NCBI GenBank assembly: GCA_051294375.1
Contig: CM119263.1
Span: 2,488,182-2,552,181 of the forward strand
Origin: Paraspadella gotoi
Lineage: Eukaryota > Animalia > Chaetognatha
Length of the DNA: 64,000 nt
Reading direction: 5' to 3'
In this document: piece by piece, positions 1-37,003 of the stretch
How the letters are laid out: the number at the start of each line of letters is the position of its first letter
Numbering within the stretch: position 1 is the stretch's first letter
Program-made: the position numbers and the translations under genes
The notes under the pieces: generated by a model
Databases searched by the model: none
What the model was told of the DNA's origin: nothing
Seen by the model: only the letters and a program-made list of their open reading frames with translations

Positions 1-2166
1 TTCAGAAACTCACCTCTACTCACCTAACCTCGCCGCTGGCGTCCCCTGGTCGTCTCCAGCACTTCGTCGACTTCGGCAAAGATGGCGGAATTGGACGCGG
101 ACGAAATCACGACGGCCAAAGTGGAGGAGTTCATCCTCAAAGTGTCTCGACTTCTTCCTAAGGTTCTTGACCGAATGATTGATTGATTGATTGGGTCGAA
201 GTGACTGCTTAATGGATTACGAATTATTAATTTGATTGGTTGATAAATTTATTGTTTTGATTGCCAGCATCAACATAAATAGATAGTTGGATTGCTTTAT
301 GAAATTAATATATTTCTAGTAACCGACTGACTAATAGATTAAACAGTGGCTGCAATCGATTCGATTTATTGATTGATAGATCAGAGAGTTTTTATTGATT
401 TATTTTGACCGATTTACAATCGCTAATCGTTTATAATGATTCGATTTGATCGATGGAAAGATTTGAATGATTGATTGATTGGATCGATCCATCTCGATCG
501 CCATCTTTCCAGGTCGAACTCCACTGTCGCCTCGAAGGATGCGTCCGACCCAAGACCATCTGGGATTTGGCGCAGGAGAAACGAATTCCGCTTCCGAGAC
601 AAACGGAGGAAGAATTCATCGAGTTTTGCGGAGTCGCGAAAGCGAACTGAACTCTCCCCGCTCAGGATCTTTAACCAGGTTGCTCAAGAACATCTCGCTG
701 CAACGGTATGATGTGTCGAGGGGGTTGGAGGGAAGGGGGTGGTTCCGACGGCTGAATGGGGTGCCGTGGTGATGTAAGGGGAAGGTGCGATGGGTGAGCT
801 GTGCTGGAGTGAGGGGGGCAATGCAGGGCTGGAACTGTGACAGAGCTGCTAATAGTCAGAGTATATGAAACCGATCATTACGGTAGAAAGCTCCGCTAAA
901 TCAATATCAAGTTAGACATCCAATCGAACTATGTGAACGATATTCCGAAATCAGTAAATATCGAACTATATTCGTTATTCTGCGATGCTCCACCAAATTT
1001 AAAATAGAACAGAACCCAACAAAGTGTGACCAAGCCCAAACAAGTAAATAGAACCAATCAAAACGTGACTAAGCTCTCAATGAAGTAACTAGAACCGCAT
1101 CTTAAAATTCAGGTTCTCTCATCCGGTCAAGCTCTATGTCTTCGTCACCGTGTGTCGGTCGGCGAACGAGCGGCCGTGCAATCAGCGGACTGGCGGATGG
1201 AGAATCGCAGGGACAAGATAGCGCATCGATGGGCGTCAATCTATTGTAGAAGCTTGTTACCTCCGCCGGTGGATGAATGCGGGTGAGAGAACTGATAGCT
1301 ATGCCTAAATATCCATTGCTATCCGATCCTCGTTGAACTGCTTTCTCTCGGAAGACGAAGCCCATTGGTCGTGATGCGATAATATTTCACGATAATTAAT
1401 CCATCCAATTGTTGATCTATTAATCCATCCATTAACGTCACTTAAACAGGCCGGGCCTGATATGTTCTGATCGTAACTATCTAGCTATCCATTCGCTTAT
1501 GCTCTCTAAACAAGACTCGCGATGATCTAGTAAGTGCGCCAACAGGTTACATAGACTAACAGAGAGTGCCGGTTATAATAGTTGTTAATAGTTGAGTGCC
1601 TGACTTATCAATATGTGTTTTTTAAGTACAGACTGTTGAAAAAAAATTAGTATGATTTTATAGATTATCTATTATGTTTAATCGTCATGGAGCTAATATT
1701 CTTAGTATTTTCCGGATTTATCTTAATAGTTTAAACCGGATGAAGCTATTTTATATCTTCTGAATACAATGTAAATGTGCATATAATTTTTTAAGCAAAT
1801 TAATTTAATCTTTTTTAAAATCGGCAATTCTGGATTAGAGCTTTGAAGAAGTTACCGATCGAAGGTTGATTTAAATGACCAATTTTTAGAAATTTTTATA
1901 TGATTTATTTATAAAAATTGAACAAAAACTTAATAATTTATGGAATGATGTGATGTAACTTGATGATAAGTGATAGACTGGTTTTAATGGTTTTTTCAAA
2001 GTTTTAGTCGCCATTTATAATTAATAAATTTTTGAAATTTGTTAGTTCTAGACCTGGTGAGGTATCTTTCTCATAAGAATTTAAATTTTCTTAAAAATGT
2101 TTTCTTATAACATATCTTGAATAAGTGCTTTAGATATTTAAAATGCTTCCCATGCATGAAAATAAG
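1..2166 (+). pseudogene. Duplicate of ADA-like exons 1-3 and adjacent introns (probably an assembly artefact)
   Basis: Colinear with about 13191-15113. It is clean up to about 640, then full of 1-nt insertions that destroy exon 3, and it ends at an N-gap. Confidence 0.75.
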
Positions 2167-11710: not shown

Positions 11711-12769
11711 ATTCGTTGGTTTTCGACCCCGTAACAAAAAAATAGAAGATACACCGTTACTTCATAACCACTGGCGGTCGTTGTCGTCGGTTTATCGAAT
11801 GCGTCGTCGTCGTTCATCGTCGTCACAAGCCGGATCGAAGATCGAAAGCGGCGGCAGGGGCGTGGAAGGGGGTAGGGGAGATGGAGGGGGGTCAACGCAT
11901 AGCGGGGAAAGGTGGGGGTGAGGCTTCGTAGAGGGGGGAAGCGGGGGGACAGAAAGTGGTTGTTGTTCGTCCACCATCGTCGTTTTTTTTTTTTCGTTCG
12001 ACTGTCGATGCAGTGAAGTTTTTTGGGTGAACAAAACGACGAACGGTGATTCGGGAGGTGAAAAGTGAACAACGAAATACACAGTGGGAAAAAAAATATC
12101 AACTAAAATATATTATTTATTTATTTTTTTTATCGTTGAATCAATGACATAAAAACATGGAATTCTTCATTTTTCGTCGTCCGATTTTTTTTGGCAACGA
12201 TAAAATTTTCTCTTCAGCTTAAAATATCTTAATATTTGAGAAGTATTTATAGTGAATTTACTATTTATCTTTTTAAATATATATTTATAAGTAAAATAAA
12301 AATATTGTGTTTTTGCTAATAATTATTTAATAATTGCGATAATTGGATGTGATAGACTTGACATCTACATAAATAAGATAATAAATTTAGAGCGACTGTC
12401 AAGATGGAAGAATTTAAAACTATATATTTAGGACATTTTTGTTTACAGATTGTTTATTATTAATATGTCATCTGACATAAAATATTTTAGAGAAATTAGA
12501 AAAGAATGAAATTATTTAATAAAAAATATAAATAAATTAAAAAAATTATACTATTATTATTATTAGTAGTAGTAATTATATTCTTATCATTTTTTTTAAA
12601 ATCATTATTATTATTATATTATTGTTATATTATTTTTTATTATTATCATTTTATTTACTATTATTATTTTTTTAAATTATTTTTTTATAAATAAAGCTAT
12701 TTCTACACAAGGATTACGAACATCTCGATCCGAAATCTCAATTCCTTCAAACAGATAAAATCGATGGGC

Positions 12770-12965
12770 GTCGACTCTGGACTCGAAGCGACGGGCGTCC
12801 AAACCGGTCGCCCGTCATCCGGCGCGCGTACCGCGGTAGCCTCTCTCGACTCCGCCGCATAGCGCGGGCGCCCGGCGAACGTGACGGGCTGCGCGGCGCG
12901 GTGACCCACGAAGTCGACCCGAAACGAAAAACAAAAAAAAACAAAAAAATCATCGACGTCAGAGA
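12770..12965. promoter_or_regulatory. CpG-rich island upstream of the ADA-AK gene (putative promoter / first 5'UTR exon)
   Basis: Dense CG/GCGC stretch inside very AT-rich DNA, about 300 nt upstream of the ATG. There is an acceptor-like ttcag at 13191-13195. Confidence 0.4.
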
Positions 12966-13268
12966 CGAGAATTAACATTCAATTCATACAAACGCGAGAT
13001 TTGAATTGGATTTTGTATTGAGGTTATTATTAATGAATTAAGCAGTCATTCAATCAAACAGTCAGTCAGTCAATCACTTAATTCATCCTTCGATCAATCA
13101 ATCCATCCATCCGTCAATAATTGATTCAATAAATAGAAAGTAAACATGTATTTTTAAAAAAAGGTCATTATTTTTATGATTGTTTTCAACTTCAGAAATC
13201 ACCTCTACTCACCTAACCTCGCCGCTGGCGTCCCCGGTCGTCTCCAGCAGTCGTCGACTTCGGCAAAG

Positions 13269-13347
13269 ATGGCGGAATTGGACGCGGACGAAATCACGAC
13301 GGCCAAAGTGGAGGAGTTCATCCTAAGTGTCTCGACTTCTTCCTAAG
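13269..13347 (+). CDS. ADA-like domain exon 1 (MAELDADEITTAKVEEFILKVSRLLPK)
   Basis: ATG at 13269 and donor CCTAAG|GT at 13348. It ends in 'LPK', which typically precedes VELH in ADA-family proteins. The clean 81-nt version is at 82-162; this copy lacks 2 nt. Confidence 0.7.
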
Positions 13348-16300
13348 GTTCTTGACCGAATGATTGATTGATTGATTGGGTCAAGTGACTTGCTTAATGG
13401 ATTACGAATTATTAATTGATTGGTGATAAATTTATTGTTTTGATTGCCAGCATCAACATAAATAGATAGTTGGATTGCTTTATGAAATTAATATATTTCT
13501 AGTGACCGACTACTAATAGATTAAACGGTGGCTGCAATCATTCGATTTATTGATTGATAGATCAGAGAGTTTTTATTGATTTATTTTGACCGATTTACAA
13601 TCGCTAATCGTTTATAATGATTCGATTTGATCGATGGAAAGATTTGAATGATTGATTGATTGGATCGATCCATCTCGATCGCCATCTTTCCAGGTCGAAC
13701 TCCACTGTCGCCTCGAAGGATGCGTCCGACCCAAGACCATCTGGGATTTGGCGCAGGAGAAACGAATTCCGCTTCCGAGACAAACGGAGAAGAATTCATC
13801 GAGTTTTGCGGAGTCGCGAAAGCGAACGAACCTCCGCTCGATCTTAACCAGTGGCTCAAGAACATCTCCTGCACGGTAGATGGAGGGGTGGAGGAAGGGG
13901 GTGGTCGAGCTGAATGGGGCGTGGGAGTGAAGGGGAAGGTGGATGGGAGCTGGCTGGAGTGAGGGGGGCAATGCAGGGCTGGGAACATGTGACAAGCTGC
14001 AATATCAAGTAAATAGAACCGATCATTACGTGAGAAGCTCCCAAATCAAATAATAGAACCAATCGAACTGTGACGAATTCCCAAATCAAGTAAATAGAAC
14101 CAATCGTTATTTGGGATGCTCCCAATTAAATAAACAGAACCAATCAAAGTGTGACAAGCTCCACAAATCAAGTAATAGAACCAATCAAAACGTGACAAGC
14201 TCTCCAATCAAGTAACTAGAACCAATCTAAATTCAGGTTCCCATCGTCAAGCTCTACTTCCACGTGTGTCGCGGCGACGCGGCCGCCATCAAGCGGACGG
14301 CGATGGAAATGCTCGAGGACAAAGCGAACGAGGGCGTCATCTATGTAGAAGTTCGTTACCCGCCGGGGATGATGGCGGGTGAGAAAATGATAGCTATCTA
14401 AATATCCATCTATCCATCCTTGACTCTTTCTCTCGAAACAAGCCCATGGTCTGACGATAATATCCATAATTATCCATATATTATCTATTAATCCATCCAT
14501 AACTCACTTTAAACAGGCCGGGCCTAGATATCTATCTTACTATCTTACTATCCATCCCTTACTCTCTCTAAACAAGACCCGCGATATCTAGTAAGGCGCA
14601 ACAGGTTACAAACTAACAGAAGTCCGTTATAAATATTGTTAATGTTGAGGCTACTTACCACAATGTGTTTATTAAAGATCGCTGAAAAAAAATATAATTT
14701 AAGATTTATCTTATAGTTAAACGCATGAACATTTTTATGATTCTATAGTAACGCATGAAGCTATTTTATATTTTCCGAATACAATGTAATGTCAAAATTT
14801 TTTAAAATAAATTTTAATTTTTTTAAAACGGATTCTGATAGAGCTTGAAAAGTTAGACGAAGGTTATTAATACAACTTTTAGAAATTTTAATGATTTATT
14901 TATAAAAATTAACAAAAACTATAAAATTTAATGAATGATGATGATATTGATGATAATGATAACGTTTTAAGGTTTTTTCAAATTTTAGCCCATTTATAAT
15001 TAAAAATTTTGAAATTTGTAGTTCTAACCTTTATCTATAAAAATTTAAATTTCTTAAAAATTTTTCTAAACATTTCTTATATATTGTTAAATATTAAAAT
15101 GCTTCCATGCATGAGGAAATTTAATTTAATAAAATTAAAAATCAAACATAAGTAAATTTGGTTGTAAAAGGAAATATTGTAAAAAATTTAAATTTTGCCC
15201 GCCTTAATATCCTGTATCTATGCAGCTCTCTATCCAACCATGAAACCCTCTCACTCTCAATCAGGCCCGGGACTGACCATGGAGCAAGTGGCCCTCGCCG
15301 TGCAGGACGGATTCAACGTTCTCTCCAAGCAAAGAGGCGACACCATCACTGGCAGATCGATTCTCGTTATCGACCGCGAGAGGCCGCAGGAAGCGGACGC
15401 CATTGTGGAGATAGCGAAGAGGTAGGGGGGAAAGGAGAAGGAGAAAATGGAGGGAGAAGGGGAAGAGAAAAGATGAAGGGAGAAGGGCGGAAGAGGAAAG
15501 GGTTAGGGAGGGGGGAAGTAGAAAGGNNNNNNNNNNNNNNNNNNNNNNNNNGTAGGAAGAAGGTGGAAGAGAAAAGATGAAGGGAGAAGGGGAAGAAGAA
15601 GGGAAGAGAAAGGTGGACTGAGATATTGTTAGTCACGTTAGACTTAATATGAATTCACCGAGGAAATTTTGTGAATGGAATCGCAGGCTTAAGTCGAAAG
15701 GCGTCGTGGGCATCGCGCTCAGCGGAGACGAAAACACGATTCACGAAAACAACCCGACTCACGCGGCCATCGCTAAGGCCTTTGAAGTGAGTCTTCTGTG
15801 TCATTGTTTATTCACGTCGGCCTTTAGGAGTGATCTTTGCTGACATTCGCAATTGCGACAATTTTCACAGTGTTACCCGCCGTCGCTCAAGATTTTGAAA
15901 AGATTAGACTAGCGGTTGCCGACCAAATTCAAATTTTAATGGGAACAGCATTAAACTAATCCATTATTGGTATTAATTATTGTGTTAAAATATTTTTTTG
16001 CAAAAATGTTCCAAACCATGAGTAATTCGCTAATTAATATTATTATATCGCTAAATAATGTCAAAAATTTTTTTAGATATTTTAAAGTTTTAGATATTTT
16101 AAGTTTTTTTAATAGATTCTGATAGAGCTTAAAAAGTTAAGCAAAAAATATAATTACAATTTTTAAAATTTTGATGTTTTAATTTTATTAATTTTATTAA
16201 TTTTAACCCACTTATCATCAAAATATTGAAAAAACAATTATACTTTGTGCAGATAACTTTTCATAAGCTATTTGAATCTGCTTTTAAAAATAAAAAATTC

Positions 16301-16549
16301 AAAAAAAAATTTTTGACATTTCCTATCTATAAATAAATATTAAAAAAAATAATTACTAATGCTTCTTGCCATTTTAGAAAATTTTGCTCCATTGAAAGTT
16401 TTCTCAGAAATGTATAAAGTTTCATTTGGAAAGGTTCCCAATTCAAACTTCTGACCCACCCCATTGACGAAGTTTGGCTCTAATTAGACCATGGCAAGCA
16501 GTTGAAACTTGAAGTCGTCGTCGCTTTTGTGACATGTCCTTAATTGTCC

Positions 16550-16589
<40 letters not shown>

Positions 16590-19500
16590 AATTAAATTTC
16601 TATTATCATTTTTTTCACCCAGAAAGCGAAGAAACTTCGCCTTCACCGAACTGTGAACAACGGGCAAGGAGGTGAAGGATCGAGTTGGAACGTGAAGGAG
16701 GCGATCACTCGACTCAACGCAGAAAGAATCGGTCACGGATACAAGTTTTTTGAAGGCAAAGACTGGGGGGGCGGGGGGGGGTGAAAAGGGGAAGCTGGAT
16801 CGAAGTAGCGGAAAGGTGAACATTCGAAAGTTTAATTTAGAGGAAAACAAAGTTTTTAATTCTTAACAAATGAAATTATAAATTTAAAACAGTAACTTTT
16901 GCTCAATTTAAAATGAAATACGAGGCTGTTGTTGAAAGAAAAAAAATTGAGCTCTGACAACGGTGGACCGGGGTCCAATCCATTTTACGATTAATTCCTT
17001 TCGGGTTAAGCCGACTTTTCATCTTCCTTCCCCCCCCCCCCACAACCTCCTCAGGATCCTGAACTGATGCGACTGGCCAAGGACAAGGGCATCCACTTTG
17101 AGATCTGCCCCTACTCGTCTCTGCAGCGCCGCGCCGTCGACCCCAACTTGCCCTTGACCCAACACCCGCTCAAGACCCTCTTTGAGGGCGGCTTCAGCGT
17201 CTCCATCAATACCAGCGACCCGACGGTTACTCGCAAGGACATCAAGCACGAGTACATCCTAGCCTATGATCAGATGAGCATGACGTTGGATGAAATCTGC
17301 ACCACAATCCGTTTGGCGGCCAGAGCCTCGTTTCAGGTGAGTGGGCGTGGTCTTGGAGTTAAAATAGACTTTTAATATTTTATTTCTAACAGTATAATTT
17401 ATTTGGTTTAAAATAAACTAATAATAAAATCTTATATAAGGTGATAGATGTGAAAACTAAAAAAGTTTTTTAACTAAATTTAACCAAAACTTAATTCTTC
17501 TTCCAGGACGAGAGTCACCGCAACGCCCTCATCGAACGTATGGACGACACCATGTCCAACATCCGGGAGCGCGCCCGGCATTTTGTCCGCTTCCAGCGAG
17601 ACTACCAGGCCTTCTGGGGTCCGGACTTCCGGGTAACCAGTTTGAACATCTCCAACCGGGATGCATTTCCTCTCCACTCCCATCCCGACACTTCCGGTAT
17701 GGGCAACATTGTGGCCAAGAAGAAGCCAGGAGATAAGAAGGTAATTGAACCAGAGGAGAAGCCAATGCCGAACCAAGCACCCTGGGCTCTGAGGGAAATC
17801 GTAAAAGAGGAGGACGTTAAAAAAGGCGTGACGCCCGTGGAGGCGCCCAAAAACGTCATGGTGCCTGGGCTGGGAATGTCCCAGATGAGAATTCCTGTGC
17901 CAATTGTATTCGTGTGCGGCGGACCAGGGTCAGGAAAAGGCACTCAATGTCAACGCATCGTAGAAGAGTACGGCTTCACCCACCTTTCCTCGGGTGACCT
18001 ACTTAGAGAGGAAGTGGCCTCAGGGTCGGAAACAGGTCAGACGCTTCAAAAGATCATGCAGGATGGTGAGTTAGTCCCCTTGGAAACTGTCCTCACATTG
18101 ATCAAGGACAAGATGGTCGATTGCCTGAAGACATCGAAAGGTTTCTTGATTGACGGGTACCCGAGAGAGAGGGAGCAGGGAGTCAAGTTTGAAGCAATGA
18201 TTGGGCCTTGCAAATGCGTACTTTTTTTCGACGTTTCTGATGATGAAATGACGGAAAGGCTTTTAAAGCGAGCTGAGACTTCGGGAAGGGCTGATGACAA
18301 CTTAGAAACAATCAAGAAACGATTAGAAACGTTTCATGCGACTGTTGACCCAATTTGCGAGTATTATGCAAAGAAGAACAAATTGTATCAAATTGATGCT
18401 GACTCCCGTGGGCCTGACGAAATCTTTGAGGACACTAGGGCAAAGATGGACATCGTGATTGGGAAGGTAAAAGCCCCTCCGCCCAAAATAAAAGCTGATG
18501 TGTTTTTTGTCTGTGGAGGACCTGGTTCTGGAAAGGGAACGCAATGTGACAGAATCGTTAAGAATTACGGATTCACTCATATTTCATCTGGTGATTTGTT
18601 AAGAAATGAAGTCGCCTCCAATTCTCCAAAGGGAAAAGAGCTGAATGAACTGATGCAAGCAGGAAAACTCGTTCCGCTCGAAACGGTTCTCGGGCTCATC
18701 AGGTCTCAAATTGTCAAAAAGGCCAGAACATCCAAAGGTTTTCTTATTGATGGCTATCCAAGAGAAATCGCTCAGGGCATCAAATTCGAAGATCAAATTG
18801 CTAATGTCAAGGGTGTTCTGTATTTTGATGTCTCTGATGAGGAAATGACAAAGCGTTTGCTGAACAGAGGCAAGACCTCTGGCAGAGTTGACGATAACAT
18901 TGAAACAATTCAAAACAGATTGAGCACCTTTCATGCCTCAACAGAGCCTGTCTGTACTCATTACAAAAAGAAGGGGAAACTGAGAGTGATTGATGCAGAG
19001 CGTCCTCCCGAAGATGTTTTTTATGATGTGCAAGTTCAACTCAACAAGTTCCTCAAGCTTCCGCCTCCAGCCGCTCCAAGAATCGAGACTGACATCTTCT
19101 TTGTCTGTGGAGGTCCTGGTTCGGGAAAGGGAACTCAATGCGAGCAAATAGTCAAAGATTATGGCTATACCCATTTTGCAACGGGAGATTTGCTCCGCGC
19201 TGAGGTCGCCTCTGGATCTTCAAGGGGAAAAGAATTACGGGCCATAATGAAGGAGGGCAAGTTAGTGCCAATTGACACTGTCTTGGAATTGGTCAGAGAC
19301 GCGATGTTGTCAAAGAGGTCAACGTCCAAAGGTTTTTTGATTGATGGTTATCCAAGAGAAGTAGCGCAGGGTAAGCAGTTTGAAGACAAGGTCGGCGAAG
19401 TTAAGGGAGTGTTATTTTTTCAAGTGTCAGACGATGAAATGACCCAAAGATTATTAACTAGAGGAAGAATTACCGGCAGCAAGCACGATACGGAAGATTC

Positions 19501-22500
19501 TATTAGAAGTAGACTAGCAACGTTTCACGAAACTTCAGATTCAGTAAAGGAATTCTACAAAAAACAAGGAAAATTACATGTTATTAATAGTGAGCGTAGA
19601 GAAAATGAAATATTCAGAGATGTTGCTTTATCCTTGGACAAAATTTTGGGATTAAAGAAAGTTCGTTCTGATATATTTTTTGTTTGTGGTGGTCCCGGCT
19701 CAGGAAAAGGAACACAATGTGAAAAAATGGTAAGAGAATATGGCTTTACTCACTTGTCAACGGGGGATTTATTACGTGCAGAAGTTGAATCAGGATCTGC
19801 AAGAGGGAAACAACTCAATTCTTTGATGCAAGCTGGAAAACTTGTACCAATGGAAATTGTACTAAATCTCTTAGAAGAGGCAATGTTAGCAAAATTTAAA
19901 ACTTCTAAAGGATTTTTGATTGATGGTTATCCTCGCGAAGTGGAACAAGGAGTTGCTTTTGAAAAGCAAGTTGGAAAATGCAAAGGAGTATTGTACTTTG
20001 AGGTATCAGATTCAGTCATGATAAAGCGGCTATTGAATCGTGGTAAGACATCAGGGCGAGTTGATGATAACATTAGTACAATTCGCAAACGTCTACAAAC
20101 ATTTCATGATGCCACAACTCCAGTTTTTGAGCATTATGCAAATCAAGGAAAACTGCACACAATTAATGCTGAACGATCACCAGATGAAATTTTTCTTGAT
20201 GTTAAAAATGAAATAGAATGGATGCTAGGGGTTCGGCCAAATATTAAGGGAGACATTTATTTTGTCTGTGGGGGACCAGGTTCAGGGAAAGGTACACAAT
20301 GTGAAAAACTTGTAAAGAGATATGGATTAACACATCTTTCATCTGGAGATTTATTACGTGAAGCTGTTATGAGTGGATCTCCAATAGGTCAAGAACTTAG
20401 TGCTATTATGTCAGCTGGAAGGCTAGTTCCTTTAGAAACAGTATTGAAACTGATTCGTGATGCCATGATCGCTAAAGCGGCAACTTCAAAAGGATATTTA
20501 ATTGATGGTTACCCACGAGAAATAATACAAGGAATTAAATTTGAAAATCTCCTAAAACCATGTAAAGCAGTAATTTATTTTGAAGTTTCTGACAAAGAGA
20601 TGACATCGAGGTTACTCAATAGAGGTCAAAGCTCTGGAAGAGCTGATGACAATCAGGCAACCATTGCTAAAAGACTTGTTACATTTCATCGAACAACCAC
20701 GCCAGTAGTAAATCATTACAAGCATATAGGAAAGCTGATAGAAATTAATGCTGAAAAGCATCCAGATGATGTGTTTGAAGTGCTTAAAGCAGAAATGGAT
20801 GAATTAACAGGACTAAATGAAACAGCCCCGCCTGTAGAAATCTGGGACAGGATTAATAATGGTTACATGACGGTGAGTAGAAGGCATTATCTCAAAGTTA
20901 AAAAATTTTTTAAGAAAGATAAAACTTGGATTTTAGATAAAAATACCCTTAAACCAGTCGAAGTTACATGGAACCATTTCATGAAAATACGAAATGAATA
21001 CAGGCTATCTTCCCCTGAGCTTTCATGTAGACCAGGAGACAACACTTTGTTTGTAAATATTCCAGATAAAATAAATGGTACCAAAATGCGGGTGACTTGG
21101 GAAATGTGGCTTAAAGTTCGGAACCATATTGAAGTAGATATCTTTGATAAAATAAATCATTGTTGGATGGCAGTACCAAGAGATGATTATTTGAAGACAA
21201 AACATTATTATCAAACAGAACAAACATACATGTATGATAAAATAAATCAATGTGAAATGAAAGTTTCCTGGAAAAATTTTTGCATGGTTCGACACTTTTA
21301 TACTGATATGATTATTGATGCGCATCCAGGAGATAAAACATTGCATACAACTATTCATGATAAAGTCAATAACTGTCTCATGAGGGTTACTTGGGAAGAC
21401 TATCTAAAAGTAAAACATCATTATCTTCCTAAGCCAAACCTGGAAGGGAAACCCATTATATTTGTTTGCGGTGGACCTGGAAGTGGAAAAGGTACTCAAT
21501 GCGAGAAAATTGTAAAGAACTATGGATTTACTCATCTTTCCTCAGGAGATCTGTTAAGAGATGAAGTTGCTTCCGGTTCAAAAAGGGGGAAAGAGTTAAA
21601 TGCATTGATGCAATCAGGTCAGCTTGTTCCTTTAGAAGTGGTTTTAGAATTAATAAAAGATGCTATGATAGCTAAAAAAGATACTTCAACTGGATATTTA
21701 ATTGATGGCTACCCTCGCGAGGTGGCTCAGGGAAAAATGTTTGAGGACACTATAGGATATTGCAAGGGAGTGATATATTTTGATGTTTCTGACGATGAAA
21801 TGACCAAGAGGCTACTTCACAGAGGAAAAACCTCTGGCCGTGTTGATGACAATGAAGAAACCATTAAGAAAAGGTTACAAACCTTCCATGACGCAACTGC
21901 CCCTGTAACAAAGTATTATGCTGCCATTAACAAACTGTATACTATTAATGCTGAAAGGAATCCTGACGAAATTTATAAGGACGTTGTGAATGCTCTTGAT
22001 CAGATGATTTTGTCTGATTCAAAAGTTATCTTTGTAATTGGAGGTCCAGGATCTGGAAAAGGAACACAGTGCTCTAAATTACTCAAACGATATAATCTTT
22101 CACACCTTTCCTCAGGAGATTTGCTCAGGGAAGAGGTAGCAAGTGGATCAGATATTGGAAATACTGTTAAGGATATTATGAAAAGAGGAGAGCTGGTTCC
22201 CTTACAAACAATATTAACCCTAATAAAAGATGGCATGGTAAAAAGATCACTTAAAGGAAGCAAAGGTTTTTTAATTGATGGATATCCTCGTGAAGTCGCA
22301 CAGGGAGACAGTTTTGAAAGCATGATTAAGCCATGTGATAAATGCCTTTTTCTTCAAGTTTCAGATGAATCAATGACAAATCGCTTATTAGCAAGGGCAG
22401 CTATGAATAAACGATCTGATGAGAATGAAGAAACAGTTAAAAAGCGATTGAAAAGTTTCCATGGCATAATTCAACCAGTTGTTAACCATTACAAAGACAA

Positions 22501-25500
22501 AAGAAAACTGGTTGAAATAACTGCAGAAGGAAACATTGATGACATATTTTTAGCGATAACTAAGAATTTGGATAAAGTTTTTAAGCTGTCAAATCCACCT
22601 ACACAGATATGGGATCGAGTCAATAATTGTTTTATGACCGTACCCTATGATGTGTATAAAAATGTAAAACATTTTTATAAAAGAGATACTACTTATATCT
22701 ATGATCGTGTCAATAAATGTGGCATGGAGGTCACATGGGATCAGTACATGAAAGTAAGACATCTTTATGCTGATTCAAAATTAGAAGTTTCACCAAGACC
22801 AGGAGACGAAACTATATATGTTGTAGCCTTTGATCATGTTAATAAAGCTAAAACAAGGATGTCATGGGAAAACTACCAAAAATTACTTGAATGGTTTAGT
22901 GTTAAAATTTGGGACAAAGTAAACCACACTTGGATGACTATACCAAGATCTGTTTACTATACAATCAAACATCATTATGAAGATAATACTACTTTTATGT
23001 ATGATAACATAAACAAGTGCCCAATGAGAGTTACTTGGAATAACTACCTTAAAGTAATGCATCATTTTGATGGTATGTTCCCAGAAATTTCTCCGAGACC
23101 AGGAGATGTAACACTTTATGTAAAAATTCCAGACGAAGACAACAAGAAAAAAATTAGAATGACCTGGGCAGATTACCAAATGATAAAAAGTCGTTTCTTT
23201 GTTGATATCTATGACAAAGTTAATGACTCTTGGATGACAGTTCCACGCAAGATTTATCTGACTGTAAAACACCATTATAAAAAAGATAAAACCTATATTC
23301 TTGATGAAGACTGTCCAAAATTGGTTTCGTGGTCCGATTATTGTAAAAACATGCATCATTTTGCAGACGTTACCCCCGAAATTTCACCAAAACCAGGTGA
23401 TGATACTTTGTATGTTCTTATTTATGATAGGGTAAACCAATGTAACATGAGGGTATCCTGGAATATTTATCAAACTGTCAAGCATTATTACAAGCCACCC
23501 CCATTAGAAGACAAAATAATAATTTTTGTTTGTGGAGGTCCTGGAAGTGGCAAAGGTACCCAGTGTGAGAGAATTGCACAAAAATATGGGTACACCCATC
23601 TGTCTTCCGGCGATTTACTTAGGGCAGAGGTAGCAAGTGGTTCAGCAAGAGGACAAAAACTTGCAGTAACCATGCAAGAGGGAAAGCTTGTTCCCTTAGA
23701 ATCTGTTTTGAGTCTCATAAAGGATGCAATGATACAGAAATTTGATGAATCAAATGGGTTTATAATAGATGGTTATCCAAGAGAAGTTGAACAAGGAAAA
23801 AAATTTGAAGATCAGCTTGCCCCTTGTAAAGCAGTTCTATTTTTCGATGTATCAGATGAAGAAATGAAAAATAGATTATTACAGCGAGGAAAAACCTCTG
23901 GGAGAGCTGACGACAATGAAAAAACCATAATGAAGAGAATAAGAACATTCCATGAAGTTTCAGAACCCGTGAATGAATATTATAAAGAAAGAAGAAAATT
24001 ATTTACTATAAATGCAGAAAGGCGACCAGGAACTGTATTCACAGATGTAGAACAAGTTTTAGACCAAATAACACTCGAGAAAACTAAAGTATTATTCATT
24101 ATTGGAGGACCAGGAGCTGGTAAAGGTACACAATGCAAAAAATTATCTAATGAATTTAATCTTTCTCAAATGTCGTCTGGGGATCTTCTACGAACTGAAG
24201 TTGACTCTGGTTCACATCTTGGAACAGCTTTGAATGATATCATGGGAGTTCGTGAGCCAGTGGCAGTTGAAACTGTACTTAGGTTATTAAAACTAAAAAT
24301 GGTCAATGAAGCCTTAAACGGAAGTCGTGGATTCTTAATTAATGGCTTTCCACGAACAGTGAAACAAGGAGAAATGTTTGAAAAAATAATAAAACCAGCA
24401 GACACTTGTATTTATTTTAATGTTTCAGACAAAACAATGTCTGACCGATTAAAGCAAAACGCTAAAAATCAAGGAATTGAACTTGATGATGATACTATTC
24501 AAGCCAAATTAGAAAATTTTCATAAAACTTCACATCCTGTATATGTCCAGAATCGTGCAAAAGGTAAAATGATTGAAATAAAAGCAGAAGGAGATGTTGA
24601 TTCGATTTTCAAAGAAACAAGAGCACGAGTTCAACTTGTAATGAGTCCAACACCACCAGATCTTTCGAAAAAGCCCATAATTTTTGTGTGTGGCGGGCCA
24701 GGAAGTGGTAAAGGCACACAATGTAATAAAATTGTTGAAAAATATGGTTTTACTCATCTCTCCTCTGGAGACCTGTTACGGGAAGAAATTGCCTCAGGAT
24801 CGGTCAGAGGTAAACAGTTAAATGAAATGATGGTAAATGGAGAATTGGTACCATTAAAGATAGTGCTGACATTAATAAAGGAAGCAATGATTGCTAAAGC
24901 TCATACATCCAAAGGTTATTTGATTGATGGGTATCCTCGTGAAGTAGAGCAGGGAAAGCAGTTTGACTCATCCATTGCACCGTGTACAGCCGTTTTATAT
25001 TTCGAAGTTTCCCGTGGAGAAATGACCAAACGTTTGATGAACCGTGGAAAAACTTCCGGAAGAGTTGACGATAATGCTGAAACCATCAAAAAACGACTGG
25101 AAACTTTTTATACTGTAACAACTCCAGTAACCGAATATTATAATTCTATCGGAAAGCTTTTTACTATTAATGCTGAGCGTACGCCAGATGCCATCTTTAA
25201 TGATGTAGAAGATGCATTGGATAAAACAGTTTTAAAAGTCCCAAAAGTTCTTTTCATTGTTGGAGGACCAGGCAGCGGAAAAGGAACACAATGCGAAAAA
25301 CTGGTCTCTTCCTTTGGTCTCACTCATTTATCATCAGGAGATCTGTTGCGTGAAGAGGTTGCCTCAGGGTCAAAATTAGGTAAAGATTTGGATAAAATTA
25401 TGAAAAAAGGAGAACTTGTACCTTTGGAAACCGTGTTGTCTATTCTCAAGGCTGCTATGGTTAAAGCAGCTTTAAAAGGAAGCAAAGGGTTTTTGATCGA

Positions 25501-28500
25501 TGGGTACCCCAGGGAAATTCGACAGGGTACGCTCTTTGAAAGTATGATAAAACCCTGTAGTGGAGTAGTTTACTTCAAAGTTTCTGACAAAGCAATGACA
25601 GAAAGGTTGTTGAAAAGAGCCAAGACAAGTGGCAGAGTTGATGATAACAAAGAAACTATTAAAAATCGTCTTGCCATCTTTCATCAATCAACGCAACCAG
25701 TTGTTGGGCACTATAAAGCTAAAAGAATGCTTGTTGAAATTAATGCGGAAGGAGATATTTATGATATCGCAAATGAGTCATTGACCAAAGTAGATAAAAT
25801 ATTTCATCCACCGCCAGTTGACATTTATGACAAGATTAACAGAAGCTGGATGACAATACCTCGAAAAAATTACCTCAAAGTTAAACATTACTACGATAAT
25901 GATTATACATTTATACACGATAAGGTTAATGATTGCCCAATGAGGATATCATGGTATAACTTTTGTAAAGTTAAACATTATTATACAGAGAATGATATAA
26001 AAATCTCCCCACGGCCGGGAGATAAAACACTTTACGTTGAAATTTATGATAGAATTAACGTTGGATACATGAGGGTTTCGTGGGACGTTTACCAAAGCGT
26101 TAAACATTATTACGACCCGCCAAATCTCAAAGAGAAGATCATAGTTTTCGTTTGCGGTGGCCCAGGCAGCGGAAAAGGAACACAATGCGAAAAGATCGTC
26201 AAGAAATACGGTTTCACTCATTTATCATCCGGAGATCTTCTTCGGGACGAAGTCGCATCCGGGTCTTTGAGAGGTGCCGAAATTAAGAAACTGATGAAAT
26301 CCGGGAAACTAGTTCCCCTGGAAACGGTTTTGACTTTGGTCAAGGACGCGATGATCGATAAAGGACATTTGACCAACGGATTCCTGATCGACGGATATCC
26401 TAGAGAAATAGAACAAGGAAAACAGTTCGAAGAAATGATCGCTCCTTGCAGAGCCATCATTTATTTCGAAGTTTCCGACAAGGAAATGACCAAGAGATTG
26501 TTGAACAGAGGAAAATCGTCCGGCCGAGTCGACGATAACGAGAGAACTATCAAGAAAAGATTAGCCACTTTCCACGAAGCCACTAAACCAGTGGTGAGTC
26601 ACTACGAGGATCAAGGAAAACTGGTCGCCATCAACGCAGAGAGAACCCCCGACGAAATTTTCAAAGACGTCTCGAAAAATATAGATAAGATAATCTTGCA
26701 CGATCCGAAAGTGTTGTTCATCGTCGGAGGCCCCGGATGTGGTAAAGGAACTCAATGCGAAATGTTGGTCAAGAAATTCGGATTGACTCATCTCTCATCC
26801 GGGGATTTGTTGAGAGAAGCCGTCGCCTCGAAATCCCCGATCGGTCAACAATTGGACGAAGCGATGAAGAGAGGAGAATTAGTTTCACTCGCCGTCGTAC
26901 TCGAGCTGATCAAGGAAGCGATGATCAGAGCCGCGTTCAAAGGCAGCAAAGGATTTCTCATCGATGGATATCCGAGAGAGATAGAACAAGGAAAGAAATT
27001 CGAGGAGGGCATCAAACCTTGCGACAAATGTCTCTATTTCAACGTCTCCGATCGAACCATGACGTCCAGGCTCCTCAAACGGGCGAGGACGAGCGGCAGA
27101 GTCGACGACAACGCGGAAACGATCGAAAAACGTTTGGTCACTTTTCACAAATCGACTCAACCCGTCGTCTCTCATTATCAGAGAAAAGAGAAACTCGCGG
27201 AAATTCCGGCGGAAGGAAGTAAAGAGGACATTTTCGCCTCGGCCTGTAAATACGTCGAGATGGTTTTCAAACCGCATTTAGATTTAAGAACGAAACGCAT
27301 CATCTTCGTCTGCGGCGGACCCGGCAGCGGGAAAGGAACTCAATGCGAGAAGATCGTAGCCAATTACGGATTCACTCACCTCTCTTCTGGCGACCTCTTG
27401 AGACACGAGGTCGCCTCGGGCTCCTTGATCGGGAGAGAGTTGAACGCGATGATGAAAGAGGGAAAGCTCGTTCCCATGGAAACCGTTTTGAAGCTGTTGA
27501 AGGACGCCATGTTGGCGAAATCGGAATTCGCCAACGGATTCCTCATCGACGGATATCCGCGAGAGATCGCGCAGGCGCAAAAGTTCGAGGAGATGGTCGC
27601 TCCTTGCAAAGGCGTCGTTTATTTCGAAGTCTCCGACGGTGAAATGACCAACAGGCTCTTGCAACGCGGGCAAAGCTCGGGTCGTGTGGACGATAACGAA
27701 GAGACCATCAAGAGCAGACTTGCCACATTCCATCAGGCGACGGCGCCGTTGACGACTCATTATAACAAACAAGGAAAGTTATTCAAGGTCAACGCGGAGA
27801 CGACGCCCGACGAGATATTCGATGACGTCCAGAAGGCAGTAGACAAGATCATTCTCAGCGATTGCAAAGTACTCTTCGTTGTTGGCGGGCCGGGCAGCGG
27901 GAAAGGCGAGTAGATGGATGAATGAGTTAGGGTTAAGAGTGATGGATTTGAGTATAAGGGACCATTAAGTAATAGAGTGATGTGAAAATAATATAACATA
28001 TAGAATATAAAAATAAAAAACCAATAAAAATACTTTAATAATTTTATTGTTTTAATTTTATATATTAGTAAGCACTAGTGAGCTATATTTACATATAATA
28101 AATATATAATAAACTAAAATTTCAAAATACAAATTTTTAAATTTTAGGATTGGATTTGAATTCCTAACAAAAAGTTAGTATAAGAAAGTATAATTCTTTT
28201 TTAAAAATTCTTACATTAAGTTAGTCAAAAAACTTAAAAAAAGAAGAAAAGAAAAAAGAGAGGAAGACAAAGATATTTTATGTACATCTTATTCATTTTC
28301 CAATCCATTATATTAAATACAAGGCTGCTCAAATCCTTTTCAAATGACCTAATTTTACACATGCCATTTAAAAAAAAAGGAACCCAATGCAAGCGGCTCA
28401 AGCGAGACTTCAACCTCGCTCACATCTCCTCCGGCGACCTCTTGCGAGACGAAGTCGCTTCCGGATCGCAGATGGGCAAATCCTTGGCCGTCATCATGAA

Positions 28501-28906
28501 GAAGGGCGACCTTGTTCCCTTGGAAACCGTCCTGACCCTGATCCGCAAGGCGATGGTCAAAGCGGCCCTGAGCGGTTACAAGGGCTTCCTCATCGACGGA
28601 TATCCGCGCGAGGTGAAGCAGGGCGCCATGTTCGAGTCGATGATCAAACCGTGCGACGGATGCCTCTACTTCAACGTCTCCGACGAAACGATGGTGGAGA
28701 GACTGTTGAGCCGCGGCGTGTCCAGCGGAAGAGCAGACGACAAGGAGGAAACCATCAAGAAGCGTTTGGTGACCTTCCACGATTTGACGGAACCAGTCAT
28801 CGAGTATTACAAGCAGAAGGATAAGATCATTGAAGTCATTGCGGAAGGAGACGTGGATGAGATCTATGCCGACGCGATCGAAGGTTTATTACCCATTTTC
28901 GACTGA
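13269..28906 (+). CDS. Giant ~4000-aa fusion protein: ADA-like pseudoenzyme domain + 15 tandem adenylate kinase domains + 6 copies of a ~98-aa repeat (spliced gene, 9 coding exons)
   Basis: Manual splicing gives exons 13269-13347, 13694-13875, 14237-14378, 15265-15421, 15687-15786, 16623-16754, 17055-17336, 17507-27905 and 28380-28906. Phases match at all junctions except 6/7, which is ambiguous by 1 nt. Exons 1 and 2 carry 2-nt and 1-nt deletions that are absent from the duplicate at 82-162 and 513-640. Exon 8 begins GAC GAG AGT CAC (DESHRNALIER), in frame with the 3457-aa ORF at 17540. Confidence 0.82.
13694..13875 (+). CDS. ADA-like domain exon 2 (VELHCRLEGCVRPKTIWDLAQEKRIPLP...WLKNISCT)
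   Basis: ttccag| acceptor and ACG|GTAG donor. Matches human ADA [28 protein letters not shown]. It has a 1-nt deletion relative to the copy at 513-640. Confidence 0.8.
14004..14230 (+). repeat. ~40-nt minisatellite in ADA intron 2
   Basis: About 6 degenerate units of caaatcaagtaaatagaaccaatc(g/a)aa..gtgac.agctc. Related sequence at about 860-1100 and 2192-2275. Confidence 0.75.
14237..14378 (+). CDS. ADA-like domain exon 3 (VPIVKLYFHVCRGDAAAIKRTAMEMLEDKANEGVIYVEVRYPPGMMA)
   Basis: ttcag| acceptor and G|GTGAG donor. Matches ADA [36 protein letters not shown]. Confidence 0.88.
15265..15421 (+). CDS. ADA-like domain exon 4 (GPGLTMEQVALAVQDGFNVLSKQRGDTITGRSILVIDRERPQEADAIVEIAKR)
   Basis: tcag| acceptor and AG|GTAGG donor, phase 1 to 2. 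Matches ADA LTPDEVVALVGQGL...ARSILCCMRHQP. Confidence 0.85.
15687..15786 (+). CDS. ADA-like domain exon 5 (LKSKGVVGIALSGDENTIHENNPTHAAIAKAFE)
   Basis: cgcag| acceptor and GAA|GTGAGT donor. Matches ADA VVAIDLAGDE...HVQAYQ. Confidence 0.85.
15920..16468 (+). mobile_element. Foldback/MITE-like dispersed repeat, copy 1
   Basis: Colinear with 50334-51087 (gaccaaattcaaattttaatgggaacag...aacttctgacccaccc). It has imperfect internal inverted symmetry, for example tgtcaaaaattttt / aaaaatttttgaca and gattctgatagagctt / aagctatttgaatc. Confidence 0.65.
16623..16754 (+). CDS. ADA-like domain exon 6 (KAKKLRLHRTVNNGQGGEGSSWNVKEAITRLNAERIGHGYKFFE)
   Basis: cccag| acceptor. Matches ADA IHRTVHAGE...VKEAVDILKTERLGHGY. 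The donor is uncertain: GAAG|GCAAAG is one base out of phase with the next exon. Confidence 0.85.
17055..17336 (+). CDS. ADA-like domain exon 7 (DPELMRLAKDKGIHFEICPYSS...SINTSDPT...AARASFQ)
   Basis: ctcag| acceptor and CAG|GTGAGT donor. Matches ADA HFEICPWSS...YSLNTDDP...AAKSSFL. Confidence 0.9.
17507..27905 (+). CDS. Giant 10.4-kb exon: end of ADA fold, linker, AK domains 1-14, start of AK15, and three repeat blocks
   Basis: Uninterrupted 3457-aa ORF. GGPG[S/A/C]GKG P-loops start at about 17918, 18515, 19109, 19688, 20270, 21470, 22040, 23534, 24104, 24692, 25262, 26156, 26726, 27314 and 27884. Most domains also have HLSSGDLLR, GxLVP, FLIDGYPRE and the short LID RxxxSGRxDDN of AK1/UMP-CMP-kinase type. 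Confidence 0.95.
20834..21424 (+). repeat. Coding repeat block 1: two ~98-aa units between AK5 and AK6
   Basis: Units begin VEIWDRINNGYMTV and VDIFDKINHCWMAV. Each has three IxDxxNxxxMxVxWxxYxxVKHxY sub-repeats and an (R/H)PGDxTL linker. Confidence 0.9.
22601..23491 (+). repeat. Coding repeat block 2: three ~98-aa units between AK7 and AK8
   Basis: Units begin TQIWDRVNNCF, VKIWDKVNHTW and VDIYDKVNDSW. Each contains SP(R/K)PGDxT(I/L)YV. Confidence 0.9.
25817..26113 (+). repeat. Coding repeat block 3: one ~98-aa unit between AK11 and AK12
   Basis: VDIYDKINRSWMTIPRKNYLKVKHYY...SPRPGDKTLYVEIYDRINVGYMRVSWDVYQSVKHYY. Confidence 0.9.
28380..28906 (+). CDS. Terminal exon completing AK domain 15 (G|TQCKRLKRDFNLAHISSGDLLR...EGLLPIFD*)
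   Basis: Joins to GGPGSGK G| through the GC donor AAAG|GCGAGT at 27906 and the acceptor AAAAAAAAAG| at 28379, restoring GKGTQC. AATAAA at about 28987. Confidence 0.9.
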
Positions 28907-31696: not shown

Positions 31697-32539
31697 CTGC
31701 GGCGTCCGAAAACGAATCAAAAACGAAAAACAAAAGCAGCGAAAACGAGAAAAGTAATTAAGTAAAATAAATAAGATATCGAGTCCAGTTAAAGCGTGTC
31801 ACGCGGCCGGATCGCTTATGGCTCAGTGAGGCCATCTCCAAGGACCATGGCGGTGATAAAGAAAAATTGGAAGATGTCAAAACTTCCGATTTTTCTTATA
31901 TTTTAAACCATTTAAACAATTTTAATTCAAATTACATCATACTCAAAAAATAATATATTCTATAATTGATTAAGCCTACCTAAATTATCAATAATAATCA
32001 TTTAATATTAAACTCATTCCTTTTTCTTACATTCTCTTTCAGCATTAAACTCACTCCAAACCCTAAACTTAGCCCAAATATTAAACATATTATGTATTAA
32101 AGTTTAAAATATTAATATAGACTGAGGGGCATGATTTTATCAGAATACATGTGAATTGTTACAATAAGTTTCTTACCATATTGGATCATCCATTTATTTT
32201 AAATATAAAAATTATTCAAACTGTAAGGTGCTAAAAAAATTGATCTAATGTGTCGATCTTCGCAGCGTGCGAGTGAGCCTAGCGAGGTGGAGGAGAGAGT
32301 GGCCTCCTAGCCGTCGCACAGTGAGCTACGTCGTGGATCAAATGTCGAAAAAGAGAAAGTCAAAGAAGTATTGACGTCATTTGTAGTAGTAAGTCTTCCA
32401 TGTGCAATCAAAAGCGAACCCATTATCCGGCAAAGGTCAATTTTTAACATAATTTATCCTTAAATATTTTTAAATGGTTTTACAAAAGACGTTTTAAAAA
32501 GATGTTTAATTATAAAAAAATCAATAAAAATTATTACCC

Positions 32540-33331
32540 AACTACCCTAAACCCTTTTAACCCTAACCACTCTTAACCCTAATCAACCCCAAAACCCTAA
32601 CCCCTAACCTAACTTTAAGCAACAACTTTATTCATTTTGTAACAGTTATTTTAAGATACCAGATTTGATAGATTTGATAGATGCCAAGCAACAGTCAAGA
32701 TTGCAAGGTCAACAACGCCCCCCCAAGCCAATTCAGAAACGCCGCCGCCAGATCTGGCGTGATTAACAATTAAAACAAGTTTGAGCAAACAATGTCGGAT
32801 CTGCCCACTAAGGCGTAATGAAAGTTACATATGAAAATTCTAAAAGTTAATTATGAACAACATACCATCAGTGACCAGTAATTTGTAAAAAAAAATTAAT
32901 TTTTGCAGTAGNNNNNNNNNNATTATTACCCAACTACCCTAAACCCTTTTAACCCTAACCACTCTTAACCCTAATCAACCCCAAAACCCTAACCCCTAAC
33001 CTAACTTTAAGCAACAACTTTATTCATTTTGTAACAGTTATTTTAAGATACCAGATTTGATAGATTTGATAGATGCCAAGCAACAGTCAAGATTGCAAGG
33101 TCAACAACGNNNNNNNNNNCGACATTGTTTGCTCAAACTTGTTTTTTCTAATAAAAGAGAGGGCCTCACACAATTTTTGGCTAAATTTTACTTTCACCGA
33201 CCGCGGTTTTGGCGGCTTTTGAAAAAACACTTAAAAATACTTATTTTTAAAAAAAATTAAAAAAATATTACCTAACTACCCTAAACCCTCTTAACCCTAA
33301 ACCACCCTTAACCCTAACCCCTCCCTAACCC
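32540..33331 (+). repeat. Degenerate (CCCTAA)n telomere-like tracts
   Basis: accctaaaccc..taaccctaacc.. tracts at about 32540-32613, 32931-33005 and 33270-33331. Confidence 0.6.
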
Positions 33332-36817: not shown

Positions 36818-37003
36818 TTAAATTGCTGTTTCTACACTGTTAAGATTGTTGACATTGCCATCGAGCCTGTCATACGAAGTGGGTTTGCGGTTCCTCGTAT
36901 GGAGAGAATGAAAACTATGAACAGAAGAAAAGCTTCGCCTGTCTAAACTTGAGGCGTCATATCGAGCGTCCAGTGCGTGGCGGAAGGCGTTAACAACGCG
37001 AAT
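36818..37003 (-). CDS. PMCA: PMCA alternative last exon, b-like, with class I PDZ ligand ([15 protein letters not shown]...VETAI*)
   Basis: tttacag| acceptor, exact IRVVNAFR motif, and C-terminal ETAI (compare ETSL/ETSV of vertebrate PMCA b forms). Confidence 0.9.
   Translation of the reverse strand: MRVVNAFRHALDARYDASSLDRRSFSSVHSFHSLHTRNRKPTSYDRLDGNVNNLNSVETAI

Follow-up and report, generated by a model that had tools for sequence, protein, structure and literature searches.

A predicted adenosine deaminase pseudoenzyme at the head of a chain of fifteen adenylate kinase domains in the chaetognath Paraspadella gotoi

We analysed a stretch of 64,000 nucleotides (hereafter the window) from the chaetognath Paraspadella gotoi (GCA_051294375.1, contig CM119263.1, positions 2,488,182 to 2,552,181). 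A spliced gene on its forward strand encodes a product of about 4,000 residues, composed of a barrel resembling adenosine deaminase (ADA), a linker of about 115 residues, 15 adenylate kinase domains of the AK1 type and repeats of about 100 residues. Since Glu217 and three of the four ligands of the zinc that holds the hydroxide in the established ADA mechanism are absent, the head is, to judge from its residues, very probably dead for canonical deamination. We favour, with a probability of roughly 45%, the reading that the head may be a metal-free cap, which would bind adenosine monophosphate (AMP) or adenosine and make the way in which the kinases are anchored or assembled depend on AMP.

Residues lost and kept in the ADA-like head

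Residue numbers are those of mammalian ADA, transferred through a HMMER alignment to bovine/human ADA1 (E-value 1.3e-54). His15 and Asp295 are among the established zinc ligands of ADA. According to an excerpt of PMC9483566, His17 and His214 are also zinc ligands, Glu217 is the general acid, His238 is the base, and Asp181 forms a hydrogen bond with His214. In the window, the motif HCRLEG at 13703 carries H15 (CAC, 13703), R17 (CGC, 13709) and E19 (codon at 13715), NNGQ at 16656 carries N214 (AAC, 16656) and Q217 (CAA, 16665), and NTSD carries S295 (AGC, 17214) and D296 (codon at 17217). The codon at 17127 gives T269R. The EVRY motif was located at 14348, RIGHG is kept with the H238 codon at 16734, and FEICP lies at 17097. 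The initial annotation, which had been made from the sequence alone, had named H17R, H214N, E217Q and D295S as replacements and H15, H238, D296, EVRY and FEICP as kept; all of these were found where it had placed them, and contigs of two other studies are unchanged at the four replacements.

We compared the window with contigs of several samples, designated X1, X4, X7, X8 and X9. At the key codons, no difference from the window is listed for the X4, X8 and X1 contigs. The X4 pieces spanning HCRLEG and NTSD have no other letters, the X8 piece spanning IALSGDE has one difference, at 15690, and the X1 piece spanning NNGQ has seven, every one outside the motif; the X1 sample may itself be the source of the window. 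Since the contigs list no difference at these codons, the substitutions are not sequencing errors, and the canonical residues, whose appearance in raw reads would have spoken against the annotation, appear in none of the differences listed.

The same losses were found in related proteins. Of 2,468 candidates scored in a homologue search with the long exon of the gene, 12 matched. P0001 and P0002 are orthologues of 4,000 residues with an ADA-like head, and P0030 (4,012 residues) came from a cluster look-up; the contigs of the orthologues measure 12.6-12.9 kb, about the size of the mRNA. H17R, H214N and D295S are common to the window and these three, so that His15 is the only zinc ligand kept. 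Position 217 is Gln in the window and Arg in four orthologues, including the three full-length ones. The fragments P0013 and P0034 agree on the lost residues where they reach. Asp181 is retained in P0001, P0002 and P0030. The D181A change is therefore present as annotated, with Ala at 15715, but it does not belong to the coordinated loss, since the four orthologues that cover the site have Asp. The base His238 and the purine contacts Gly184 and Asp296 are retained; in all four full rows they are unchanged together with H15, R101 and S265, and eight new residues of the pocket ring are also invariant (V16C, H17R, D19E, F61W, M155D, H214N, T269R and D295S).

For comparison, we took a census of ADA domains, single or first in their protein, in 129 rows that have a letter at each of the five sites; 18 rows with a gap at a site and 3 shorter than 250 residues were excluded. 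H15, H17, H214, E217 and D295 are all kept in 122 of the 129, and four of them are lost in one. The loss of the zinc-binding and catalytic residues is therefore not a matter of chance.

It is worth noting that one argument of the initial annotation fell away. H17R had been reported in both copies of the domain, but the second copy, at positions 1-2166, is an assembly duplicate and gives no independent support. In this duplicate, insertion errors climb from 2-3% to about 15-20% toward the 25-N gap. The contigs side with positions 1-2166 at some differences and with 13191-15114 at others, which argues that the two stretches render one locus. The contigs do not cover the duplicated part at twice the depth, although this is only a hint. 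Three further indel errors in exons of the window (Table 1) are all corrected by the contigs. The initial annotation also lacks the main context of the domain, its place at the head of 15 adenylate kinase domains.

Conservation and origin of the barrel

The identity of the barrel between the window and P0001, P0002 and P0030 is 72-73%, whereas it is 57-83% for the kinase domains and 57-60% for the linker. Because its identity falls within the range of the kinase domains, the barrel is not decaying. All of the nine coding differences between samples that were checked are synonymous, three in the barrel and six in the long exon; the count covers the differences listed, without the ones that fall on the error near 16745 at the end of an exon. 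The proposal of a pseudoenzyme rather than a decaying gene is thus borne out by the losses common to the orthologues, the kinase-level conservation and the three synonymous differences, out of three listed, in the barrel.

Residues 26-374 of P0001 align to positions 1-329 of PF00962 with an E-value of 2e-60, and four of the window exons match this family singly. On TIGR01430 the barrel scores 225 bits, above the cut-off of 216.55; since this equivalog cut-off is passed, automatic annotation would label the predicted dead barrel as an active enzyme. The affinity to ADA1 (E-value 1e-54) is far stronger than that to MAPDA (1e-18), human ADAL (8e-13), or ADA2 and the Helix AMP deaminase (both 4e-6), and none of ADAL/MAPDA, ADA2/ADGF and AMP deaminase is therefore the subfamily closest to it in sequence. 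In trees built on 46 and 29 of 164 rows, the barrel clusters with animal ADA1-like sequences, with a support of 100 in the Shimodaira-Hasegawa-like approximate likelihood ratio test. These comparisons indicate that the barrel is derived from animal ADA1.

A profile search gave 11 tandem ADAs of protists, including Dictyostelium, in which an intact first domain is followed by a degenerate second one (P0050, P0059, P0076, P0094, P0099, P0101, P0104, P0110, P0116, P0118 and P0147; P0059 has an extra N-terminal domain). H17R occurs in 10 of the 11 second domains and E217R in four; H238 is lost and D296 mostly lost. A clade shared by the barrel and these domains was rejected by the approximately unbiased test (p = 0.002, in a quick tree of 29 rows with long branches), and H17R therefore arose in parallel. 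We also observed a stand-alone degenerate ADA, P0082 (H15F, H17R, H214E, E217G and D181A), which clusters with ADAs of flatworms, for example P0038. Given its occurrence in two further degenerate ADA lineages, separate from this one in the tree, H17R may serve generally to plug the zinc site, and its parallel appearance in three lineages is a candidate for a general rule of how this barrel does without zinc.

The kinase array and possible roles of the head

The five AK1 motifs (the P-loop, S/TGDLLR, DGYPR, the LID arginines and the acidic pair) are complete in 13 of the 15 kinase domains of the window, and 13 of 15 domains also have all five in each of the three orthologues. The best PDB match of kinase domain 1 is AK1 (E-value 7e-64). 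From these motifs, the domains of the array are AK1-type (short-LID) adenylate kinases with predicted kinase activity. All 15 domains are nearest to the domain of the same number in P0001; the array is therefore older than the split between the window and the orthologue. According to an excerpt of PMC2680645, adenylate kinase forms linear arrays in myofibrils, and the cilia and flagella of sea urchins contain a triplicated form of the enzyme.

In the cap that we favour, the array would convert 2 ADP to ATP and AMP beside a fast ATPase of the trunk muscle or of cilia or sperm. Arg17 would occupy the former zinc site, and an adenine nucleoside or nucleotide would be held by the kept G184, H238 and D296, by D19E, and by the added basic residues R17, R269 and, in the orthologues, R217. 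Binding of the ligand would alter where or how the chain docks, rather than switch all 15 kinases directly. The shared losses, the conservation of the barrel and the retention of G184, R101 and H15 are in favour of the cap. H238 and, mostly, D296 are lost in the second domains of the protists, yet both are kept in this head. In addition, the unrelated P0006 carries a 5'-nucleotidase head (PF02872, E-value 1.4e-33) at the same position on an array of 15 kinases, so that arrays of this kind have acquired an AMP-catabolic domain on two occasions.

Several facts, however, weigh against the cap. The pocket is invariant at 25 of 31 positions, against 231 of 357 elsewhere, a marginal excess that among four sequences is not significant (Fisher p of 0.08). 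The window and the orthologues differ at the contact positions F65 (I/Q), L106, D181, A183 and E217 (Q/R). The recurrence of H17R in unrelated lineages could mean that Arg merely plugs the zinc site. The AlphaFold2 model, obtained on the four-row alignment, is too poor to show the pocket (predicted local distance difference test score, pLDDT, 48; predicted template modelling score 0.42), and Foldseek matches it to ADA1 at a root-mean-square deviation of 17-18. Allosteric control of 15 kinases by one head, moreover, is hardly possible. A predicted homodimer with AMP along gave a score of 0.00, which decides neither for nor against the cap. Binding of a nucleoside or nucleotide, which the initial annotation had suggested among the roles of the domain, is therefore a candidate function.

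A plausible, if tentative, alternative is that the head is a structural module without a ligand, in which Arg17 and its neighbours would plug the active site and the barrel would serve to dock or oligomerise the chain of kinases on a structure of the sarcomere or axoneme. Amidohydrolase barrels that are dead as enzymes are known to serve as scaffolds, as in the dihydroorotase-like domain of yeast Ura2, Pseudomonas PyrC' and the CRMP proteins. The parallel origins of H17R and the drift of the pocket between the window and the orthologues would fit such a module. So would the strong invariance of stretches outside the pocket, such as the N-terminal helix (20 of 25 columns) and the C-terminal linker helix (10 of 13), and that of 109 of the 188 columns at which active ADAs vary. 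The retention of H238, D296 and G184, contrary to the protist second domains, speaks against it, and the parallel nucleotidase fusion suggests an adenylate-related role of the head.

It is also conceivable, but improbable, that the head has changed its chemistry and acts on AMP or another purine, with a rearranged metal site (H15, H238, D296, E19 and C16) or without metal, so as to remove the product of the kinases. AMP deaminase removes AMP in vertebrate muscle. H15, H238 and D296 are invariant, the ADA fold has taken nucleotide substrates before (the PDB matches include the Helix AMP deaminase, MAPDA and the CRISPR-associated Cad1), and nucleotidase-type motifs are kept in the head of P0006. 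The general acid is lost, however, together with three of the four zinc ligands, neither Gln nor Arg at position 217 is an acid, and nearly all of the relatives in the census keep all five residues. Finally, it is very hard to sustain that the domain is a relic in decay or an artefact of assembly: the assembly is noisy, with three exon indel errors and a false duplicate, and the window has the extra change D181A, but orthologues at about 73% identity carry the same losses, contigs of two studies are spliced in frame, the listed differences are synonymous only, and exon order and protein length are preserved.

Beyond the metal-free cap itself, a more specific and rather unlikely proposal may be made from these sequences, namely a phylum-specific phosphotransfer chain for burst swimming. 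In it, 15 working myokinases would sit on the contractile or ciliary apparatus via a new repeat fold, and the head would be an arginine-lined AMP sensor, converted from a zinc enzyme. If this were true, AMP would be sensed by a module that has no relation to the CBS domains of AMPK and is coupled straight to the AMP-producing enzyme.

Gene layout, the rest of the window and known systems

The gene consists of a 5' exon, seven coding exons, a 10.4-kb exon and a last exon (Table 1). The ADA-like exons continue in frame into the 10.4-kb exon, and one X4 contig links them to it in order; two exons have no listed piece in this contig, and the 232 letters between the listed pieces equal their corrected length. 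An X7 contig, from a study separate from that of X4, splices the first three exons together. Since the X4 and X7 contigs skip introns, we read them as cDNA (the kinds of samples are guessed), whereas X1, X8 and X9 run through the introns. GC was observed instead of GT at the 5' end of two introns, 16756-17054, backed by an X4 junction, and 27906-28379, which is inferred.

Table 1. Features of the gene and its assembly duplicate in the window
Feature	Positions	Strand	Remarks
Assembly duplicate of 13191-15114	1..2166	+	82.8% identity, 259 gap letters; ends at 25-N gap
First 5' exon	12755..13022	+	X7 contig covers 12766-13022 and skips to 13199
Start-codon exon (ATG 13269, MAEL...LPK)	13190..13347	+	2-nucleotide deletion error at 13324
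ADA-like exon: H15, V16C, H17R, D19E, F61W	13694..13875	+	1-nucleotide error near 13788
ADA-like exon with EVRY (R101, Y102 kept)	14237..14378	+	
ADA-like exon with M155D (codon 15372), R156	15265..15421	+	
ADA-like exon with IALSGDE: D181A (15715, window only), G184/D185 kept	15687..15786	+	
ADA-like exon: H214N, E217Q; H238 kept; GC donor at 16756	16623..16755	+	1-nucleotide error near 16745-16747
ADA-like exon: C262/S265 kept, T269R, D295S, D296 kept	17055..17336	+	PF00962, E-value 4e-16
10.4-kb exon: barrel end, linker of about 115 residues, 14 AK1-type domains, P-loop of the 15th	17507..27905	+	X4 contig junction to ADA-like exons
Two repeat units of about 100 residues, each of three hairpin-helix elements, after AK5	20852..21436	+	
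Three repeat units of about 100 residues, after AK7	22604..23494	+	
One repeat unit of about 100 residues, after AK11	25823..26128	+	
Last exon: remainder of AK15 and stop	28380..28906	+	Predicted GC-AG intron 27906-28379; junction inferred from orthologue continuity

The 31-nucleotide loose 5' end of the X7 contig is not in the window and is joined at the AG at 12753-12754. Its last 15 nucleotides equal the end of the spliced leader SL2.0, and 17 of 20 equal SL4.2 (Table 3 of PMC2481426, a source seen in excerpt). In the same excerpt, the spliced leaders of chaetognaths are described as unlike those of any other phylum. On the basis of this one X7 contig, the mRNA of the gene likely receives a trans-spliced leader of the chaetognath type, a match that favours a chaetognath over a ctenophore origin. 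The first exon also has an ATG at 12764, which may be an upstream open reading frame or an N-terminal extension; indel errors blur the frame. Short N-terminal extensions are present in P0030 and P0034.

The aromatic-rich repeat of about 100 residues occurs in six copies, which sit in three inserts of the kinase array, with the same number and placement in all full-length orthologues. Of the 225 proteins fetched, no others contain it. Pfam matched none of the six units, and PDB sequences, Foldseek and the ESM Atlas gave no usable match, the best Z score of VIA-align being 3.3. The predicted fold has a pLDDT of 77. This lack of a family match does not show a new fold.

Elsewhere in the window, we observed a neighbouring gene on the reverse strand (about 36800-60050), which we take from its motifs to resemble a plasma-membrane Ca2+-ATPase; its C-terminal end seemingly has two alternative exons, one near 36818-37051 and the other near 39826-40200. 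An AT-rich intronic element with very high contig depth is present in multiple copies (14492-15187, 15884-16579 and 50334-51087). An exact duplicate of 188 nucleotides (32530-32717 and 32922-33109), bounded by 10-N gaps and accompanied by degenerate runs similar to TAACCC, is probably another assembly artefact.

Outside the orthologues, no fusion of ADA with kinases was found among the best 150 profile matches, from which the 4,000-residue orthologues are themselves absent, or among 8 matches of 703-2005 residues. In the literature on ADA-adenylate kinase fusions, inactive ADAs, and multi-domain or chaetognath adenylate kinases, subscription papers being outside the scope, no description of the protein was found; for adenylate kinase in chaetognaths, one unrelated paper came up. 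An excerpt of PMC12460157 mentions neither adenylate kinase nor deaminase; the marker tables of that paper may list the gene. Amidohydrolase domains that are dead as enzymes are a known kind, as are kinases in tandem; it is their combination and scale, a dead ADA head on 15 kinases, that appear undescribed.

Among known proteins, the head is most like ADA1 (PF00962; PDB 9vlv, 1w1i and 3iar), which gives the best sequence and Foldseek matches, with 35-39% identity to invertebrate ADAs. It differs in H17R, H214N, E217Q/R, D295S, M155D and T269R and in its fusion to 15 kinases, whereas ADA1 stands alone. The tandem ADAs of Dictyostelium (the ADA_DICDI cluster, P0116/P0207) and other protists (P0050, Vermistella) share the ADA fold devoid of zinc ligands and H17R, but they are of independent origin and are partnered with an active ADA domain, not with kinases. 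Ura2, PyrC' and CRMP (UNC-33), likened here from general knowledge and without sequence comparison, belong to the same amidohydrolase superfamily and have lost metal ligands while the fold stayed under selection; they descend from dihydroorotase or dihydropyrimidinase rather than from ADA. The head would thus be a conserved natural pseudoenzyme of ADA1 with a few defined replacements, tractable as a domain of 400 residues.

The array resembles the triplicated adenylate kinase of the sea urchin, also a marine invertebrate, in which a single polypeptide likewise carries the kinase domains in tandem. The sea urchin enzyme, with which no sequence comparison was made, has 3 domains, against 15 here, a fivefold scale, together with the ADA-like head and six unclassified repeats. 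Long arrays of 9-10 tandem adenylate kinase domains occur in Chytriomyces P0007 and P0008, which are annotated as hypothetical. A parallel in layout is P0006 (3,425 residues), in which an AMP-catabolic N-terminal domain, its start apparently cut, precedes 15 adenylate kinase domains; like the Chytriomyces proteins, it has 40-44% identity and is without the ADA domain and the repeats of about 100 residues. Taken with P0006, the gene suggests repeated fusion of AMP-handling heads to kinase arrays, and in a chaetognath it offers a concrete case among the many lineage-specific genes of that phylum, with a testable energetic role.

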